64,000 bases of DNA. Origin: Escherichia phage vB_EcoM-fFiEco06. The translations under genes were made by a program, and so were the position numbers. Of this stretch, positions 9,465 through 56,845 are shown in pieces; the first letter of the stretch is position 1; every line of letters starts with the position of its first letter. The notes under the pieces were generated by a model. The model did no database searches. It was not told the DNA's origin and saw only the letters and a list, made by a program, of their open reading frames with translations. The stretch lies in the sequence record NC_054914.1; one strand, given 5' to 3'.

Positions 9465-9935
9465 TTAATCATGTGTCCACACCCCATCGGTATTTGACCA
9501 AAGCCGCTGATTATCTGATCCTCTCCACAGCTTTTTGGTCGGAAGATTTTTCTCATACTTCCCATCAATAATAACATCAACATATTTAAGCATTTCTAGT
9601 TGTTTAATATCTTCAAACTTATATCCTGTCCACAACCAAATGCTTTTATTTGGATAAAGATTTTTTACTGTTTGAACAATGCAATGAATAACATCTCGAT
9701 TATCAGGATAGAGAGGGTCTCCTCCAGTTATAGTTAATCCTTCTATATAATCATTATTCAAACATTCAATTAATTGTTCTAGTGTTTCACCAGTGAATGG
9801 AATACCATTTCTAGCATTCCATGTTGATTTATTATAACACCCTTCGCATTTATGCAAACAACCTGTAACGAAAAGAACGACCCTGCAACCAGGGCCATTC
9901 ACAAAATCGCAAGGATAAAATCTATCATAATTCAT
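9465..9935 (-). CDS. nrdG: Anaerobic ribonucleotide reductase activating protein (radical SAM)
   Basis: 156 aa; CxxxCxxC cluster (CLHKCEGC). Confidence 0.9.
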   Translation of the reverse strand: MNYDRFYPCDFVNGPGCRVVLFVTGCLHKCEGCYNKSTWNARNGIPFTGETLEQLIECLNNDYIEGLTITGGDPLYPDNRDVIHCIVQTVKNLYPNKSIWLWTGYKFEDIKQLEMLKYVDVIIDGKYEKNLPTKKLWRGSDNQRLWSNTDGVWTHD

Positions 9936-11749
9936 TGATGCTTAACCCTATGCATGATTTCTTTATTTTTGCCGAGATTAAATCCGCGTTCGTTCGGATT
10001 TCCCAAATAACCACATGTTCTTCTTATTGTATTCATCTTTTTAGGATCAGTTTCTCCACAAATAGAACAAACAAATCCGTTTTCAGTAGGAGTCATTTCA
10101 TGGGTACTTCTGCATGTAAAACATTTATCCACTGGCATATTAACACCAAAATAATCTAAATGTTGTGCAGCATAATCCCATACGGCCTCAAGACCTTTCA
10201 AGTTATTTTTCATATCAGGAAGTTCAACATAAGAAATGTGACCACCTGTCGCAATGAAATGATATGGCGCTTCACGAGAAATCTTTTCAAACGGAGTAAT
10301 ATTTTCTTCTACTGAGACATGGAAACTGTTAGTGTACCAGCCTTTATCGGTAACATCTTTTACGCTTCCATATTTTTCTGTATCGAGTTTACAGAAGCGA
10401 TAACAAAGGTTTTCAGCAGGAGTCGAATATAAACTAAAAGCAAATCCGGTTCTTTCAGTCCACTGTTTAAGATGAGCATTCATTTTAGTTAAAATTTCTC
10501 GTCCAATATCACGACCGACAAGAATATTCAATTCGTGAATACCAATGTATCCTAAAGACACTGAACTTCTACCGTTTTTAAATAACTCAATTATATCGTC
10601 ATCAGGTTTAAGACGAACCCCAAATGCACCTTCTTGGTAAAGAATAGGAGCAACAGTAGCTTTAACTCCTTTTAAGGAACTAATTCTACACATCAAAGCT
10701 TCAAAACATAAATCCATTCGTTCATTGAACAATTCAACAAATTTCTGTTCATTGAACTGTGTTCCAATATAAGAATCTAACGCGATGCGAGGAAGATTCA
10801 GTGTTACAACACCAAGATTATTACGTCCATCAAGAATTTCATTACCAGTCGAATCTTTCCATACGCCCAAGAAACTACGGCAACCCATTGGAGAAACAGG
10901 AACAGATGAACCAGTGATAGCTTTATTGTTCTTAGCTGAAATAATATCAGGATACATCCTTTTGCTTGCACACTCTAGAGCAAGCTGCTTAATATCATAG
11001 TTCGGATCGTCTTTATAAAGATTAACACCTTCTTCAACGAACATAACAAGCTTAGGGAAAATAGGAGTTATTCCATCACGACCAAGACCTTTAATACGAT
11101 TTTTCAGAATTGCTTTCTGAATCATTCGTTCAGTCCAGTCAGTTCCTGTACCAAATGTAATTGTTACAAAAGGTGTTTGTCCGTTTGAACTAAAGAGAGT
11201 ATTTACTTCATATTCATAAGCTTGGAATGCATCGTATACATCTTTTTCTGTTTTAGATTGAGCATAATTCAACGCATCAGCGATTTGCCATTTTTCTGCA
11301 TCCTCAATATGTTTTGCATAGGTGCGTTTAACATAAGGAGAAAGTACTTTATCGACATTAGCAAATGTAGTTCCGCCATATTGGTGAGAAGCAACCTGTG
11401 CAGTAATTTGTGCCATAATTGCAGTAGCAACACCGATTGATTTAGGAGTTTCAATCTGTGCATTACCAAGCTTAAATCCGTTCTCAAGCATTCCTTTTAA
11501 ATCTACTAAACAACAATTAGTAAATGGAAGAGCAGGGGAATAATCAATATCGTGGAAATGGATAATTCCGCTTTCATGCGCTTTCATAATAAAAGACGGG
11601 ACCATATTTTTGGCAATGTGTTTAGACACAATACCAGCCATAAGGTCCCGTTGAGTTGGAAAAACACGAGAATCTTTATTAGCATTCTCGTTTAAAAGGT
11701 CTTTATTAGTTTTATGAATCAATCCTTCAATTTCTTTTTCAATTGTCAT
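9932..11749 (-). CDS. nrdD: Anaerobic ribonucleoside-triphosphate reductase (glycyl radical enzyme), uninterrupted
   Basis: 605 aa continuous ORF; C-terminal zinc ribbon CFTC...CSIC and glycyl-radical region RRTCGYLG. Confidence 0.92.
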   Translation of the reverse strand: MTIEKEIEGLIHKTNKDLLNENANKDSRVFPTQRDLMAGIVSKHIAKNMVPSFIMKAHESGIIHFHDIDYSPALPFTNCCLVDLKGMLENGFKLGNAQIETPKSIGVATAIMAQITAQVASHQYGGTTFANVDKVLSPYVKRTYAKHIEDAEKWQIADALNYAQSKTEKDVYDAFQAYEYEVNTLFSSNGQTPFVTITFGTGTDWTERMIQKAILKNRIKGLGRDGITPIFPKLVMFVEEGVNLYKDDPNYDIKQLALECASKRMYPDIISAKNNKAITGSSVPVSPMGCRSFLGVWKDSTGNEILDGRNNLGVVTLNLPRIALDSYIGTQFNEQKFVELFNERMDLCFEALMCRISSLKGVKATVAPILYQEGAFGVRLKPDDDIIELFKNGRSSVSLGYIGIHELNILVGRDIGREILTKMNAHLKQWTERTGFAFSLYSTPAENLCYRFCKLDTEKYGSVKDVTDKGWYTNSFHVSVEENITPFEKISREAPYHFIATGGHISYVELPDMKNNLKGLEAVWDYAAQHLDYFGVNMPVDKCFTCRSTHEMTPTENGFVCSICGETDPKKMNTIRRTCGYLGNPNERGFNLGKNKEIMHRVKHQ

Positions 11750-12219
11750 TTTAAACTCTTTCTAAGCTGCTTCTTAAATGAAGCTATTAACTGTGTTTTG
11801 GTGTCAGATTCATTATATTCAAATCCTCTTTGAAGCATCTCGGCCATCATTTCCTCTTTTCCTAAACGAGAAAATTCCTTTGATTTATCTCCAACAAAGT
11901 TAGGGTGAATATTATTTTGGGTGTAATCGGATTTTAAATAAGTAAGTAAATTTTCTAACCATTCAAGATAATCAACACCTTGTCCCTTTAAGCCAGAACG
12001 ATTAAATTTATGCTTCATTTGACCTTCTGCAGCATTGCAGAGATTACAAAGCAATCCACGTATCTTTCCTGCTTTTGGTCCATTTAATTCATGGTCATGG
12101 TCGAGGTGATTAGCTTGAACATCAGGATTTAGTTCTCGTTGGCAAATTAAGCATTTACCGTTTTGTGCATTATAAAATTTTTGTTTTTCTTCTTTGTATA
12201 ATTTGCCAGTCAATAACAT
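11746..12219 (-). CDS. 49: Endonuclease VII (Holliday junction resolvase)
   Basis: 157 aa; CLICQ...HLDHDHELNG...CNLCN zinc/H-N-H motif. Confidence 0.9.
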   Translation of the reverse strand: MLLTGKLYKEEKQKFYNAQNGKCLICQRELNPDVQANHLDHDHELNGPKAGKIRGLLCNLCNAAEGQMKHKFNRSGLKGQGVDYLEWLENLLTYLKSDYTQNNIHPNFVGDKSKEFSRLGKEEMMAEMLQRGFEYNESDTKTQLIASFKKQLRKSLK

Positions 12220-29641: not shown

Positions 29642-29855
29642 ATTTGACTTCCTCACCAGTACATAAATCGTATTCAACTAAACGAATAGGTTCATGAATG
29701 CCATATCCCTGAACAGAAATTTCTGTCGTAGGATAAATTCCACTAATATCACCCATATTCCACGCTTCATTAAATTGATGTTCGCCTGAATTACTAAACC
29801 ATTCTGCGAAAGCATTTAACACATCTTTAGAACCTTCAATAATTATCTTTGCCAT
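29634..29855 (-). CDS. Hypothetical small protein (vs.5 position)
   Basis: 73 aa. Confidence 0.4.
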   Translation of the reverse strand: MAKIIIEGSKDVLNAFAEWFSNSGEHQFNEAWNMGDISGIYPTTEISVQGYGIHEPIRLVEYDLCTGEEVKYD

Positions 29856-30217
29856 TACAAGCTCTCAGTAAAGGTACGAGCGATAACGTCGCGCTGCTGT
29901 TCCGGAGTCAGAGAGTTAAAGCGAACTGCATAACCGGATACACGGATGGTCAGCTGCGGATATTTTTCCGGATGCTTAACTGCATCTTCCAGAGTTTCAC
30001 GACGCAGAACGTTAACGTTCAGGTGTTGACCACCTTCAATTTTAACTGTAGGCTGTGTCTCAATTTCAATTTCACGGGCATGCAAACCATAGAAAATTTC
30101 TGGGTCTACAAAAGAGTCCTCTTTAAAGGTTTTAGAGACAATAATTCGTGCTTGAATACCATCTTCAAAATAAATAGTACCTTTATGTGTGCCTTCAAGA
30201 ATTTGATATGCTTTCAT
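29855..30217 (-). CDS. Autonomous glycyl radical cofactor (GrcA/YfiD-like)
   Basis: 120 aa; C-terminal glycyl-radical motif [29 protein letters not shown]; the 3' half is about 50% GC. Confidence 0.8.
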
Positions 30218-30223
30218 ATAACC

Positions 30224-30604
30224 TCAATTAGAAAATAAATTTATCCAAGATTGTTCTTTAATTAAAAATGGCTCAGAATCATATGCCATTAAACTCTGTG
30301 TGATTAGTCCTTTAAAAGGCCCATCAATAAATTCCATGGTAAAATATGGAATTTTATTCATTAGCCGTGCATTAGGAGCCGTGCACAAAACTCTGCATCC
30401 TTTGAATACGCCTTTTTGTAATTTGTATTGCTTGGGATAAAATTCGCTCAAAATGTTATTTTTTGCCAAAATTTCAAAATGATTCACCAATTTATTTTTA
30501 ATAGTTTTTGGCGAAAAATAAAGATATTCGAAAAGCTGAGTGTCTGTCATCATTGCATTCCGATTACGAAAAACTGTGGACGAGTAATACCACCAATGCA
30601 ACAT
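30224..30604 (-). CDS. Hypothetical protein (vs.7 position)
   Basis: 126 aa. Confidence 0.4.
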   Translation of the reverse strand: MLHWWYYSSTVFRNRNAMMTDTQLFEYLYFSPKTIKNKLVNHFEILAKNNILSEFYPKQYKLQKGVFKGCRVLCTAPNARLMNKIPYFTMEFIDGPFKGLITQSLMAYDSEPFLIKEQSWINLFSN

Positions 30605-31234: not shown

Positions 31235-31651
31235 TTAAATGTAAATATTTTTGCCGTAATACTTATACCAGTGTGGCTTCATTAAAATTTTTTCATCGAG
31301 TCGTTGTTGACTCAACTTAATAGCTGATTTACATGGATTATAATCATTTTTCCATTCTACTGGAATATCGCTGATGTCAGGAACTTCAGTATCTTTTATA
31401 CTGAACCCGCGTTTTAAGCATTCCGTTATAATGTCCGATTGACGCTTTCGCAAAAATTCTAACTTATCGTAAAAGAAAGTAACATGACCAGAACCTAAAA
31501 TAAATTTAGAAGATATTTTAAAATCTTTAACGCGCTTACCGTTTGCCACATGCTTACGAACTATACCAAAAACACGCGGCAATTCACGGTATTCTGCGAT
31601 TAAATGTTGATCAGCAAGTTCAGATACTAAAGTCAAATTAATACGAGTCAT
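31235..31651 (-). CDS. denV: Endonuclease V (pyrimidine dimer DNA glycosylase)
   Basis: 138 aa; [17 protein letters not shown]...[10 protein letters not shown]. Confidence 0.92.
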
Positions 31652-31673
31652 TTTATCCCTCCAAGTAACTGTG

Positions 31674-31706
31674 AATATACTATCACAATTCTAGGAGAAA
31701 GTAAAC
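31674..31706 (-). promoter_or_regulatory. T4-type early promoter upstream of denV
   Basis: Minus strand GTTTACTTTCTCCTAGAATTGTGATAGTATATT. Confidence 0.55.
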
Positions 31707-31710
31707 AACT

Positions 31711-32241
<531 letters not shown>

Positions 32242-32697
32242 TTAAAAGAGGCTGTTCATTATTCGGTAAAGTGAAGGACCCATCACATATTGCCACTGAG
32301 TACGAGGAATAAGAGCAAAAGCATCCATCTCTGGAATCATAACGCCATCTTTATTTTCAAAATAAGACTCGCAATGGCAATTTCTAAACATCTCATGCTC
32401 TACTGGAATCGTATAATAAAATAACTGTAAGTCTTTATTACTAGAATATTTAAATACACCTAAGTCTTCTAGAAGGTCTGGATTATAATCGATAAAACCA
32501 GTCTCTTCTGAGCATTCTCTTTTTGCAGCTTCCAGTGCATTCAAATCAGAACTTTCTACACGCCCCTTTGGAATATCCCAGCGATGTGCAATCATTCCAG
32601 GTTTACGAGAACCGGTAACTCGTCCCATAAATAAATCTTTATCTTCTGTCATAAAGATAATACCAGCTGATAATGTTTTCATTTTAATTTCCTGCAT
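32242..32697 (-). CDS. nudE: Nudix hydrolase
   Basis: 151 aa; Nudix box GRVESSDLNALEAAKRECSEETGF. Confidence 0.8.
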   Translation of the reverse strand: MQEIKMKTLSAGIIFMTEDKDLFMGRVTGSRKPGMIAHRWDIPKGRVESSDLNALEAAKRECSEETGFIDYNPDLLEDLGVFKYSSNKDLQLFYYTIPVEHEMFRNCHCESYFENKDGVMIPEMDAFALIPRTQWQYVMGPSLYRIMNSLF

Positions 32698-36422: not shown

Positions 36423-36430
36423 TATTTATA
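36423..36430 (-). promoter_or_regulatory. Late promoter TATAAATA upstream of the internal-protein-like gene
   Basis: Minus strand AGTATAAATAAG about 37 nt upstream of the ATG at 36386. Confidence 0.6.
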
Positions 36431-36460
36431 CTAAAAAGCCCCAACCTTTCGGTCGGGGCT
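36431..36460 (-). terminator. Rho-independent terminator (copy 2) ending the tRNA/stable-RNA transcription unit
   Basis: AGCCCCGACC-GAAAG-GUUGGGGCU followed by UUUUUAG; about 30 nt shared with copy 1. Confidence 0.7.
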
Positions 36461-36776
36461 AAGCCTTGCGGCAACCTTGTCGGGGTTCCACCTGCTAAGG
36501 CAAGTGTTTGTACGAAACGCCGGGATTCGAACCCGGTTATTAAGCAGTTGACGCTACTCAATATTTTTAAAAGGCCATATCTCGACCATATCCGAACGTT
36601 CCGTCAAAAACGCTACTCGGCTTACGGCAAAGATATTTCCTCGAATCGATAATTCGGTGCGCCGTTTCTGCTGTGATATAAGGGGACATTAACAAAACAT
36701 AAAGATTTATTAATACCAGTCCTTAAACAGGGAACATCAGTCCGACGACTTGCCGGTAGCGACCCGGCTTCTTGTC
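36461..36776 (-). ncRNA. Stable RNA region (T4 species 1/2, rnaC/rnaD-like)
   Basis: Non-coding stretch between tRNA-Arg and the terminator, containing a tRNA-like T-arm (GGGTTCGAATCCCGG); position as for the T4 stable RNAs. Confidence 0.4.
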
Positions 36777-36852
36777 TGGTCGAGGCAGTAGGGATCGAAC
36801 CTACGACCCAGGACTTAGAAGGTCCTTGCTCTTCCTTCTGAGCTATGCCTCG
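36777..36852 (-). tRNA. tRNA-Arg (anticodon UCU)
   Basis: Hand-folded cloverleaf: acceptor CGAGGCA/UGCCUCG, anticodon loop CUUCUAA, T-arm GGTTCGATCC, encoded CCA. Confidence 0.8.
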
Positions 36853-36856
36853 TATT

Positions 36857-36931
36857 TGGCGGACGTGATAGGATTCGAACCTATAACCAATCGCTTAACA
36901 GGCGATCGCTCTGCCATTGAGCTACACATCC
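36857..36931 (-). tRNA. tRNA-Asn (anticodon GUU)
   Basis: Acceptor GGATGTG/CACGTCC, anticodon stem ATCGC/GCGAT with loop CTGTTAA, T-loop TTCGAAT, CCA. Confidence 0.7.
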
Positions 36932-36935
36932 AAAT

Positions 36936-37022
36936 TGGTGGGGAGTGGTGGAGTCGAACCACCCGAGTCGCAATGACAATGAATTTACAGTCCACACCGC
37001 TACCTCTACGGGATAACTCCCC
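36936..37022 (-). tRNA. tRNA-Tyr (anticodon GUA), long variable arm
   Basis: 87 nt; acceptor GGGGAGT/ACTCCCC, anticodon loop CTGTAAA, T-arm GGTGGTTCGACTCCACC, CCA. Confidence 0.65.
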
Positions 37023-37031
37023 AAATTAATT

Positions 37032-37106
37032 TGGTGGCCCTGGGTGGAATTGAACCACCATCTGGCGATTATGAGTCGCTTGCTTGAACCTTCCAGCTAC
37101 AGGGCC
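37032..37106 (-). tRNA. tRNA-Ile/Met (anticodon CAU)
   Basis: Acceptor GGCCCTG/CAGGGCC, anticodon loop CTCATAA, CCA. Confidence 0.75.
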
Positions 37107-37107
37107 T

Positions 37108-37183
37108 TGGTGCTGATTGACGGAATCGAACCGCCGACCTTCTCATTACAAGTGAGTTGCTCTACCTACTGAGCTAAATCAGC
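37108..37183 (-). tRNA. tRNA-Thr (anticodon UGU)
   Basis: Acceptor GCTGATT/AATCAGC, anticodon loop CTTGTAA, T-arm GGTTCGATTCC, CCA. Confidence 0.8.
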
Positions 37184-37188
37184 AAAAC

Positions 37189-37278
37189 TGGCGGAGGCGA
37201 TAGGATTTGAACCTATGAGTCGCCGGAGCGACTGCCGGTTTTCAAGACCGGTGCATTAAACCACTCTGCCACGCCTCC
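37189..37278 (-). tRNA. tRNA-Ser (anticodon UGA), long variable arm
   Basis: 90 nt; acceptor GGAGGCG/CGCCTCC, anticodon loop CTTGAAA. Confidence 0.8.
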
Positions 37279-37280
37279 AG

Positions 37281-37354
37281 TCTCCGTGGCAGGATTTGAA
37301 CCTACGACATTCTGCTCCCAAAGCAGACGCTCTACCAAACTGAGCTACACGGAG
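37281..37354 (-). tRNA. tRNA-Pro (anticodon UGG), CCA not encoded
   Basis: Acceptor CTCCGTG/CACGGAG, anticodon loop TTTGGGA; separated from tRNA-Ser by 2 nt. Confidence 0.8.
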
Positions 37355-37364
37355 TAAATTAAAT

Positions 37365-37438
<74 letters not shown>

Positions 37439-37443
37439 AAATT

Positions 37444-37530
37444 TGGTGCGAGAAGTGGGACTCGAACCCACAAGGAAATCATTCCGCAGCATTTTAAGTG
37501 CTGTGCCTTTACCAATTTGGCCATTCTCGC
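37444..37530 (-). tRNA. tRNA-Leu (anticodon UAA), long variable arm
   Basis: 87 nt; matches T4 tRNA-Leu as recalled (GCGAGAATGGTCAAATTGG...). Confidence 0.85.
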
Positions 37531-37531
37531 G

Positions 37532-37604
37532 CTGGGAATAAAGGACTCGAACCTTTGCATCCTGGAATCAAAATCCAGTGCCTTACCAACTTGGCTAATT
37601 CCCA
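37532..37604 (-). tRNA. tRNA-Gln (anticodon UUG), CCA not encoded
   Basis: TGGGAATTAGCCAAGTTGGTAAGGCACTGGATTTTGATTCCAGG...; abuts tRNA-Leu with a 1-nt spacer. Confidence 0.85.
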
Positions 37605-54639: not shown

Positions 54640-55298
54640 TGAGTTTACTTAATAATAAAGCGGGAGTTATTTCCCGCTTAGCAGATTTTCTTGGTTTTAG
54701 AACTAAGAAAAATGATATTTCGGTTATGAATAATCAGCCAGTAGGCGCTGTAACAATTTCACAAATAGCAAAAGGTTTTTATGACCCGAATGTAGAATCT
54801 GCTATCAATGATGTTAGAAATATGGCAGAGCAACCGGTTGGAGCTGTATTAGTTAATATAAGCGGCGTATCTCCTACTGGCGTGCAACAAACCGACTATT
54901 GGTCATTTGAAGGAACTGTTACTGATACTTCAGTCAAATCAGGTGACCCAGTTATTGTTAACATGTTTGGTATTCCAGTTAAAGCTACTAATGGAATGAC
55001 TTCAATTGAATTTACTAGTGCCGTTAGAATAGCTCTACAGGAAATGGTTGTAAAATTTATTGCAATTGATTCATTTGAAGACCATCCTACCATAGGAAAT
55101 AAAATACAAGTTAAGTATTTAGATAACCAAGAACATATCTTAGAACAATACTCTGATAAAGGAATTACTTTCAAACAGGAAATAATTTCTCCTTCTAAAC
55201 CTGGGTATGGAACTTGGCAATTATTAGGTGCGCAAACTGTTACGCTAGATAGTCACACACAACCTACAGTATTTTATTATTTTGAGAGAGTAGCATGA
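54639..55298 (+). CDS. 11: Baseplate wedge protein gp11 (short-tail-fibre interface)
   Basis: Start taken at the Met overlapping the gene 10 stop (TAATG), giving 219 aa. Confidence 0.85.
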
Positions 55299-56845
55299 GT
55301 AACAATACATATCAGCACGTATCAAATGAATCAAAATATGTTAAATTCGATCCTACTGGATCGAATTTTCCTGGCACTGTTACGACAGTACAGTCTGCAT
55401 TATCAAAAATAAGTAATATCGGCGTAAATGGTATTCCTGATGCAACTATGGAAGTTAAAGGAATAGCAATGATTGCGTCAGAGCAAGAGGTTTTAGATGG
55501 AACTAATAATTCTAAAATCGTTACACCAGCTACATTAGCAACAAGATTATTGTATCCAAATGCTACTGAAACTAAATATGGTTTAACGCGTTATTCAACA
55601 AATGAAGAAACATTAAAAGGCTCAGATAATAATTCATCAATAACACCACAAAAACTGAAATACCACACTGACGATGTGTTCAAAAATAGATATTCGTCTG
55701 AGTCATCAAACGGGGTTATTAAAATATCATCTACACCTGCAGCTTTGGCTGGAGTTGATGATACTACTGCGATGACTCCGCTAAAAACCCAAAAACTTGC
55801 AATAAAATTAATTTCGCAAATAGCTCCTTCAGAAGACACTGCAACAGAATCGGTGAGAGGAGTAGTTCAATTATCTACTGTTGCACAAATTCGTCAAGGA
55901 ACTCTCCGCGAAGGATATGCAATTTCCCCGTATACCTTTATGAATTCTGTTGCAACACATGAATATAAGGGTGTTATACGCCTAGGAACGCAGACTGAAA
56001 TTAATAATAATTTGGGTGGTGTTGCAGTAACAGGTGAAACACTAAATGGTCGAGGAGCTACCGGTTCTATGCGTGGAGTAGTTAAATTAACGACGCAAGC
56101 CGGTATTGCCCCTGAAGGTGATAGCTCTGGAGCATTAGCATGGAACGCAGATGTAATTAATACTCGTGGTGGACAAACTATTAATGGTTCTTTAAATTTA
56201 GACCATCTTACAGCAAATGGAATTTGGTCACGCGGTGGAATGTGGAAAAATGGCGATCAACCTGTTGCCACTGAAAGATATGCGTCCGAACGAGTTCCGG
56301 TTGGAACTATTATGATGTTTGCGGGTGATTCAGCACCTCCAGGTTGGATTATGTGTCATGGTGGAACCGTGTCAGGTGACCAATTTCCTGATTATAGAAA
56401 CGTAGTTGGAACAAGATTTGGTGGCGATTGGAATAATCCTGGCGTTCCTGATATGCGGGGTCTTTTCGTCAGAGGAGCCGGCACAGGCGGTCATATTTTA
56501 AATCAACGTGGACAAGATGGCTATGGAAAGGATAGACTGGGCGTAGGATGTGACGGAATGCATGTTGGTGGTGTTCAGGCACAACAAATGTCATACCATA
56601 AACATGCTGGTGGTTGGGGTGAATATAACAGAAGTGAAGGCCCATTTGGCGCGTCAGTTTATCAAGGATATCTTGGAACTAGAAAATATTCCGACTGGGA
56701 TAATGCTTCATACTTCACTAATGATGGATTTGAATTAGGTGGACCGAGAGATGCTCATGGTACACTTAATCGTGAAGGATTAATTGGTTATGAAACTAGA
56801 CCATGGAATATATCATTAAACTATATTATTAAAGTTCATTACTAA
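55295..56845 (+). CDS. 12: Short tail fibre gp12
   Basis: 516 aa; synteny. Confidence 0.88.

Follow-up and report, generated by a model that had tools for sequence, protein, structure and literature searches.

Probable recurrent rewriting of the T4-type phage gene vs.6 from Escherichia coli grcA by host-to-phage gene conversion

T4, the reference lytic phage, is commonly taken to have virtually no DNA in common with its host. A stretch of 64,000 nucleotides from Escherichia phage vB_EcoM-fFiEco06 (NC_054914.1), referred to below as the window, contains a short gene with one half that resembles phage DNA and another that resembles grcA (yfiD) of Escherichia coli. The locus raises the question of where the host-like half came from, and whether it was gained once or is gained repeatedly.

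Identity and predicted function of the vs.6 product

The gene in question (29855..30217, minus strand) encodes 120 amino acids followed by a stop codon, and its predicted product is a GrcA-type autonomous glycyl-radical protein. Its DNA is 100% identical to the gene annotated as 'Vs.6 pyruvate formate-lyase' in Escherichia phage vB_EcoM-fHoEco02 (Tequatrovirus), where the T4-type gene order nudE, e, denV, vs.8, vs.7, vs.6, vs.5, vs.4, vs.3, regB, vs.1, vs is found. In T4, vs.6 is annotated as 'autonomous glycyl radical cofactor GrcA' and occupies the same locus, between vs.7 and vs.5 in the denV-regB region. The order vs.8-vs.7-vs.6-vs.5-vs.4-vs.3-regB downstream of denV is conserved and the sequences are nearly identical, with 358 of 363 nucleotides in common (five differences) and only two of the 120 residues changed (T54P and R73H in T4). 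By sequence and neighborhood, the window gene is the ortholog of T4 vs.6 (Y06I), in a Tequatrovirus, which gives a firm footing to the T4 homolog named in the preliminary description. The stop codon of vs.6 (TAA) overlaps the ATG of vs.5 (TAATG).

The two halves of the predicted protein differ in their likeness to E. coli GrcA. The C-terminal 61 residues (60-120) are identical to GrcA residues 67-127, while only 18 identities were found in the N-terminal 59 residues. A near-identical C-terminus and a divergent N-terminus had been proposed from the open reading frame alone, and both were recovered here, the frame with the sequence then quoted. The Pfam Gly_radical domain (PF01228) was detected at residues 60-101 (E=2.2e-18), consistent with a stand-alone protein of the GrcA/YfiD type. 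The motif RVSGYAV contains the predicted glycyl-radical site, Gly95 (codon at 29933..29935, minus strand), which is equivalent to Gly102 of GrcA and Gly734 of PFL according to the motif and the GrcA/PflB alignment; the C-terminal module is of the PFL type, with residues 58-120 aligning to PflB 697-759 (E=5e-26). Furthermore, residues 22-120 align to the NMR structure of GrcA (PDB 6OWR, E=5e-42). The NCBIfam GrcA equivalog model (TIGR04365, IPR011140) matched residues 20-120 with 154.6 bits (E=1.4e-45), which is below its cutoff of 170 bits because the N-terminal half has diverged. When tested alone against GrcA residues 25-66, this half gave a blastp match with E=4.4e-6 (36% over 39 aa) and an hhalign match of 91% (E=1e-6), a weak but significant similarity by which it is still recognized as homologous to GrcA. 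The vs.6 protein and GrcA (YfiD, 6OWR) thus have in common their size class, the glycyl-radical motif, the C-terminal sequence and a two-part architecture, but the N-terminal half of the phage protein is only about 30% identical and is seven residues shorter, and grcA sits between ung and eamB in E. coli whereas vs.6 is part of a lytic phage operon.

Both the gene and its biochemical role are already known from T4 Y06I. In GrcA, the disordered residues 1-60 aid binding to cleaved PFL and radical installation, and the structured residues 61-127 stand in for the PFL segment that is lost on oxygen cleavage (PMC8683613). According to the account of Wagner et al. (2001) given in that paper, YfiD and T4 Y06I both restore cleaved PFL once activated by PFL-AE. 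The role of a PFL spare part, known from the T4 ortholog, is predicted by analogy for the window protein. Following the published biochemistry, PflA of the host would install the radical on Gly95 of the vs.6 protein, the C-terminal module would replace the oxygen-cleaved part of the host pyruvate formate-lyase, and the output of acetyl-CoA and formate would continue in an infected cell unable to express its own genes. A glycyl-radical enzyme of the phage itself, NrdD, had also been noted in the window, and its gene (9932-11749, minus strand) was located there together with that of its activase NrdG (9465-9935, minus strand). The suggested rescue of NrdD by the vs.6 product found no support, the C-terminal module being of the PFL/GrcA type and not of the NrdD type.

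A segment of vs.6 identical to E. coli grcA

The putative host-derived conversion tract (29865..30039, minus strand; gene nt 179-353, residues 60-118) is identical to E. coli grcA at 175 of 175 nucleotides. It encodes almost the whole of the structured glycyl-radical module and corresponds to GrcA residues 67-125. Over gene nt 179-363, identity to grcA amounts to 183 of 185 positions, comprising the 175 consecutive ones and two synonymous mismatches in the last ten bases. In the alignment, identity is about 40% upstream of gene nt 179 and immediately past the stop codon, so that the breakpoints between the donor-identical segment and its unrelated flanks are sharp, as expected of gene conversion. 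All 5,426 complete E. coli genomes searched (5,426/5,426) match the 3' half of vs.6 with 95-99% identity. The 5' half (30040..30217, minus strand) is of phage type and without nucleotide similarity to grcA; it is conserved in many phage lineages, and no match to it was found in any of the 5,426 complete E. coli genomes.

The composition of the tract was computed and compared with that of the phage. Its GC content is 0.494 versus a window mean of 0.351 (sd 0.045), which places it in the top 0.94% of 176-nt windows, and the 5' half has a GC content of 0.337. The estimate of 48-52% GC against about 35% made in the preliminary description for a GC-rich, host-like 3' half therefore holds, and no match with the composition of the flanks was seen. 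GC3 is 0.443 in the tract, versus 0.203 in the 5' half and 0.228 +/- 0.066 in windows of phage ORFs (top 0.25%). Codon usage is likewise of the E. coli type, with CTG as five of six leucine codons (6% phage-wide) and CCG as all three proline codons (13% phage-wide). In GC, GC3 and CTG/CCG codons, the tract accordingly displays a donor-like composition within a compositionally different recipient, another property expected of gene conversion. When the rest of the 64-kb window was compared with the 5,426 E. coli genomes by megablast, nothing was found but a match of about 88% over a tRNA gene. Other GC-rich spots of the window were considered as host DNA and rejected, since they consist of the tRNA cluster and the Gly-rich part of the short tail fibre gene.

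Identity of the phage sequence over gene nt 179-354 reaches 99.4% with E. coli, compared with 98.3% for another Escherichia species and 91.5% for Citrobacter; for the same stretch, the identity between Salmonella grcA and E. coli grcA is 0.84. In a neighbor-joining (NJ) tree of the tract, the phage sequence clusters with E. coli. On these comparisons, the donor is resolved to the species level as E. coli. Horizontal acquisition of a host gene segment by vs.6, as had been proposed, is supported by the exact nucleotide identity to grcA, the host-like composition and the sharp breakpoints taken together; the low nucleotide identity that would have spoken against it was not observed.

The mosaic structure singled out in the preliminary description is real in the window gene but is not peculiar to it. 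T4, RB69 and some 620 further genomes of Tequatrovirus and Mosigvirus have it too, and their left junction is the same. With E. coli grcA as the query, 623 phage records were returned at an identity of at least 95% (3 at 99% or above and 620 at 95-99%), and nearly all among the matches listed start at the same grcA position. In order to compare the tracts base by base, 19 further phage copies were aligned, giving a set of about 20 phage sequences and 8 E. coli alleles in all. The copies comprised T4, L084-L087, IME537, GiZh, OES_C-2, SHBML-50-1, ECO07P4, Shfl2 and slur04 from Tequatrovirus, and RB69, L088, L089, JS09, Shf125875, WFL6982 and TH58 from Mosigvirus. The left junction lies at nt 178/179 in all 19 copies, and the tract differs from E. 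coli at 0 to 6 positions per copy. T4 vs.6 has the same host-identical 3' tract at the same locus, with one difference from grcA (218G>A, resulting in His73) where the window tract has none. The right edge of the tract (gene nt 354-363; 29855..29864, minus strand) carries mixed phage-type and E. coli-type states at positions 354, 357, 358 and 360 across phages. In the window, 354G and 358T are of phage type and 357C is of E. coli type, while other combinations are present in T4, L086, OES_C-2 and Shfl2, T4 differing from the window at 354 and 357.

Identity at the protein level is found outside this group as well. In the phage contigs L095 and L097, which we take to be RB16/RB43-like, the 61 C-terminal residues are identical to those of E. 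coli GrcA, with a nucleotide identity of only 82.8% and a longest identical run of 17 nt. Selection alone can therefore keep protein identity, and amino-acid identity by itself is no proof of recent transfer; the nucleotide identity in the T4 group, on the other hand, requires recombination. An unconverted 3' half with 70-83% identity was found in several lineages, including CC31-like, RB43-like, KP15-like and T5-like phages. Compared with E. coli, the unconverted lineages have a dN of about 0 and a dS above 2, indicating a very strong protein-level constraint on the module.

One transfer or repeated conversion

The two segments of vs.6 have diverged to different extents between the phage genera. 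Mean pairwise differences in the 5' half (177 nt) and the tract (175 nt) were 4.2 and 4.1, respectively, within Tequatrovirus, and 3.0 and 4.2 within Mosigvirus, but 19.4 and 4.5 between the two genera. The 5' half contains 11 fixed differences between the genera and the first 20 nt of vs.5 contain another 5, but there are none in the tract (Fisher p=4e-4). Both this divergence pattern and the NJ tree indicate different histories for the two segments, as expected of gene conversion. Since the tract is as polymorphic within genera as the 5' half, no special nucleotide constraint acts on it. The E. coli sequence is central to the variation among tracts. Flanking genes are 70-85% identical between the genera, and the island of between-genus identity has nearly the same edges as the E. 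coli tract, the offset being at most about 8 nt at the left edge and 3 nt at the right edge.

Polymorphisms shared by host and phage were examined using E. coli grcA alleles that had been sampled blind to the phage variants. These alleles contained four tract SNPs: 192A>G (in an O157 strain), 219T>C, 204T>A and 282C>A. All four recur with the same base among 16 phages (hypergeometric P=4-7e-4, calculated from 23 synonymous phage variants among 133 possible), the carriers being L084 (192G and 219C), RB69 (219C), IME537 (204A), and L087 and GiZh (282A). The variant 204A is also present in another Escherichia species. Furthermore, a directed search yielded an E. coli allele with 204A-285A-336T, and this whole three-SNP haplotype, which includes two transversions, is found in phage IME537, the 5' half of which is 1 nt from the window sequence. 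Eight phage records are within one mismatch of the 204A-285A-336T allele, and parts of it occur in SHBML-50-1, ECO07P4, Shfl2 and slur04. Allele B and the phages resembling it derive from such directed searches and not from the blind sampling. Several donor alleles are thus represented among the recipients, again as expected of gene conversion, in what is a small sample.

Other tract variants belong to the phages. Some variants, such as 249A, 265T and 327T, are phage-private and inherited within subclades, and tracts therefore persist for some time between conversion events. No allele matching the variants of WFL6982 was found in E. coli genomes, which marks these variants as phage-private. 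For GiZh, the best E. coli alleles remove one of four tract differences, in agreement with the shared 282A, and the other three look phage-private. TH58 combines tract variants of different Mosigviruses, which shows phage-phage exchange inside the tract. An E. coli double allele 192G+219C was considered as the source of L084 and rejected, being absent from the 5,426 genomes. Phages differ from one another at position 219 (C and G, with 218A in T4), which may simply be a mutational hot spot.

From these sequence comparisons, repeated conversion from different E. coli alleles, accompanied by some phage-phage shuffling, is favored over one old transfer. The horizontal acquisition put forward in the preliminary description thus stands as a transfer from the host, but the data point to repeated gene conversion in place of a single acquisition. 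Overall, vs.6 is a chimera whose tract has probably been recurrently rewritten from E. coli grcA by host-to-phage gene conversion.

Four other histories of the tract were weighed against this reading. A single passage from host to phage could have been followed by spread from phage to phage through the T-even lineages, with the variants shared with E. coli arising as coincident mutations. T-even phages readily recombine in co-infection, and the mixture of Mosigvirus variants in TH58 is in line with such spread. This history would, however, require that in each of the seven Mosigvirus sequences the crossovers fell no more than about 8 nt from the left edge and about 3 nt from the right edge, without co-transfer of flanking markers, and a coincidence between the edges of the identity island and those of the E. 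coli tract would not be expected under phage-to-phage transfer. In addition, coincident origin of 204A-285A-336T, with its two transversions, in IME537 and in E. coli is very unlikely, and all four of the blindly sampled E. coli SNPs are shared (P about 5e-4). Spread among phages after one host transfer is accordingly regarded as unlikely.

A second possibility is that the 3' part of grcA entered the ancestor of Tequatrovirus and Mosigvirus in a single ancient transfer, and that its nucleotide sequence has since been held by purifying selection acting on codon usage, RNA structure or an embedded signal. The strong protein constraint seen in unconverted lineages (dN of about 0 versus dS above 2) fits this history, as does the junction at nt 178/179 common to all phages, although a shared left junction is expected in any case because homology with the host ends there. 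Against it, the tract varies within genera as much as the 5' half does (4.1 versus 4.2 and 4.2 versus 3.0), has 0 fixed between-genus differences versus 11, and contains codons atypical for the phage, while host allele haplotypes recur in single phages. Synonymous-site diversity of the tract within genera also equals that of neighboring genes, in a small sample. An ancient transfer preserved by selection is therefore considered very unlikely.

Shared polymorphism by itself gives no direction, and T-even phages could in principle have supplied E. coli with the 3' half of grcA or with its allelic variants. GC3 is the same in both halves of E. coli grcA (0.42 and 0.43), however, and the host tract diverges among genera roughly as in vertical descent (Escherichia sp. 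99%, Citrobacter 92%, Salmonella 84%), from which the direction is read as host to phage. The presence of 204A in another Escherichia species, the private variants of WFL6982 that have no match in E. coli genomes and the killing of the recipient cell that normally follows lytic infection also argue against transfer from phage to host, which is extremely unlikely as the main direction. Finally, introduction of E. coli sequence into phage records through host reads or chimeric assembly is effectively refuted: host DNA is present in phage lysates and the tract is identical to host sequence, but the same in-frame mosaic and junctions occur in about 620 independent records including T4 and RB69, the right edge retains phage-specific bases and the overlapping vs.5 start, and phage-private tract mutations are inherited within subclades.

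Other hosts, proposed mechanism and significance

In JD18-type Klebsiella phages (Jiaodavirus), the 3' half of vs.6 is 87-88% identical to E. coli and encodes an LLDAVEH variant, as in Klebsiella-type GrcA proteins. Comparison of the JD18 tract with 80 named reference genomes gave a best identity of only 91.5%, in Pseudocitrobacter. It took a metagenome scan to make the donor clear: with a JD18 35-mer, the scan returned 29 stretches, among them about 27 bacterial grcA loci and one phage contig (L193; 165,693 bp, GC 0.40). The bacterial loci have a GC content of 0.53-0.58 where long enough to judge and a MITGIQ N-terminus, and among named references they come closest to Klebsiella and Raoultella. 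The most frequent host allele in this set agrees with L193 at every base over 158 nt (gene nt 181-338); the GC content of this L193 tract is 0.59, versus 0.37 for the 5' half of the gene. Compared with the same host allele, JD18 and AM_K4 are identical at 166 of 175 positions, and they have individual variants in common with a second host allele, L191. We infer that an equivalent process with a Klebsiella-like donor has operated in Jiaodavirus-type phages, the donor species being suggested by GC content and nearest named references. No phage record contained a Salmonella-type tract at an identity of 95% or above, with 270 Salmonella phage records covered, and conversion is therefore lineage-specific and not universal. 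Two further candidates were rejected: the IMG/VR contig L112 (91% to Yersinia), considered as a Yersinia-type phage tract, is bacterial grcA with bacterial flanks, and L153-L163 are pflB.

A mechanism for the conversion may be proposed from the sequence patterns, which are those of homologous gene conversion confined to the region of homology, and from known properties of T4. The phage breaks the host chromosome into fragments, and its UvsX/UvsY recombination system is highly active, is linked to replication and allows short homologous stretches of resident DNA to be copied. In T4 marker rescue, or insertion-substitution recombination, short homologous non-phage DNA in the cell is copied efficiently, and about 50 bp is said to suffice. 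During infection, this recombination machinery would take host DNA as the donor for homologous gene conversion. The tract would end where phage-host homology ends, on the left at the start of the conserved radical module and on the right a few bases before the stop codon that overlaps the vs.5 start. In unconverted relatives, identity to host grcA is about 80% and uninterrupted matches extend over 11-20 nt, so that the initial conversion had to join sequences that had diverged. With 175 bp of identity in place, subsequent conversions would become much more likely, and the tract would since have been rewritten from different E. coli alleles in both the Tequatrovirus and the Mosigvirus lineages. 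Copying from a host-fragment template would yield a tract of phage-type modified bases. A point against this route is that T4 degrades cytosine-containing host DNA, which should limit host-phage exchange. Marker rescue is a property of laboratory plasmid constructs, whereas the vs.6 tract would be drawn from a natural chromosomal gene, in exchanges outside the laboratory.

Conversions may be favored by selection because they erase harmful changes, for which T4 His73 and RB69 Ile70 are candidates, or they may be neutral by-products. A more far-reaching possibility, less likely than not as a whole, is that continual conversion is favored by selection and keeps the radical module of vs.6 matched to the current grcA allele of the host. 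The host chromosome would then serve as a repair template, erasing damaging mutations in a protein that needs an exact fit to PflB and PflA; occasional flow in the reverse direction would let T-even phages shuffle grcA alleles from one E. coli strain to another; and Klebsiella phages would be tethered to their hosts in the same manner.

Segmental exchange between host and phage genes is known from psbA and psbD of cyanophages, where patchy GC content and statistical signals of host-phage segment exchange were described for T4-like phages (PMC1484495). As with vs.6, signs of segment exchange with the host copy are seen in a host-like metabolic gene of T4-like phages. For psbA, exchange was described in either direction (PMC1484495) and the signals are less sharply delimited, whereas vs.6 presents an exact tract (175/175) that can be tied to named host alleles, one fixed left boundary at a domain border and a classical coliphage model. 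The searchable full-text literature yielded no account of the vs.6/grcA nucleotide mosaic or its recurrence, and older T4 literature may contain prior notice of the identity.

The finding places 175 bp of exact host identity inside a functional phage gene, and the population data indicate that this segment has been rewritten repeatedly from the host chromosome. As such, vs.6/grcA would represent a clean natural case of host-to-phage gene conversion and an experimentally tractable system. For genome annotation, it implies that a host-identical patch in a phage genome need not be contamination. More generally, a phage auxiliary protein that docks into host enzymes can stay matched to its host in two ways, through selection at the protein level, as in the RB16/RB43-like lineages, and through copying at the DNA level, as the T4, RB69 and JD18 lineages appear to do.

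Gene content around nrdD and vs.6

In the window, nrdD is encoded as one uninterrupted 605-aa open reading frame (9932-11749). T4 nrdD carries a group I intron, which appears to be absent from this phage. Gene order near vs.6 was examined using the annotation of fHoEco02, a Tequatrovirus with an identical vs.6. In this type denV is followed directly by the lysozyme gene e (region 31235-32300; compared sequences L002 and L003), whereas in T4 ipII and ipIII sit between the two genes. The start codon of vs.7 is uncertain, since the mechanically called open reading frame, beginning at an upstream ATG, encodes 126 aa (30224-30604) while the gene is annotated as 109 aa (330 nt) in the matching phage record.

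Other GC-rich or host-matching regions

The GC-rich stretch at 36428-37401 is explained by a cluster of ten tRNA genes on the minus strand (36777-37604; Arg, Asn, Tyr, Met, Thr, Ser, Pro, Gly, Leu, and Gln), and the tRNA-Tyr region was an approximately 88% match to a tRNA-Tyr on an E. coli plasmid record. A further patch with a GC fraction of at least 0.49 (56313-56622) lies inside a 516-aa open reading frame (55295-56845). The product of this frame resembles the short tail fibre protein gp12, and the patch falls in its glycine-rich C-terminal part. No match to this patch was found in E. coli genomes; it is therefore compositional, not host-derived.

Variation within vs.6

Codon 73 of vs.6 (gene nt 217-219; window 29999-30001) is CGT in the window copy. 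Of the nine phages read first, four differ at this codon, which is CAT (His) in T4, CGC in RB69 and the phage copy L084, and CGG in the phage copy L088; CGC also occurs as a natural E. coli grcA allele. These changes may represent a hot spot or repeated import. In vs.6 of phage OES_C-2 (L173:429-785), the EIEIE repeat of the 5' half is shortened by a 6-nt deletion, and identity to E. coli in the tract extends to the stop codon, with the exception of position 354.

GrcA modules in other phages and metagenomes

Within the metagenome set L186-L214, the Jiaodavirus-like phage contig L193 (OIWQ01000019.1, region 11991-12025) carried a 158-nt tract with no differences from a bacterial, Klebsiella-like grcA allele, and the Klebsiella phages JD18 and AM_K4 had variants in common with a second host allele. 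Several IMG/VR "viral" contigs, one with a complete bacterial grcA and Yersinia-like flanks (L112) and others carrying pflB (L153-L163), were rejected as viral at these loci, where the DNA is bacterial or prophage-flanking.

The C-terminal 61 aa of the vs.6 homologs on IMG/VR contigs L095 (143,983 bp) and L097 (176,788 bp) are identical to E. coli GrcA, and those of homologs L098/L099 are nearly so, yet nucleotide identity to E. coli grcA was only 82-83%, with dN of 0 and dS above 2. In these homologs the phage module stays matched to the host through strong protein-level selection, without DNA copying.
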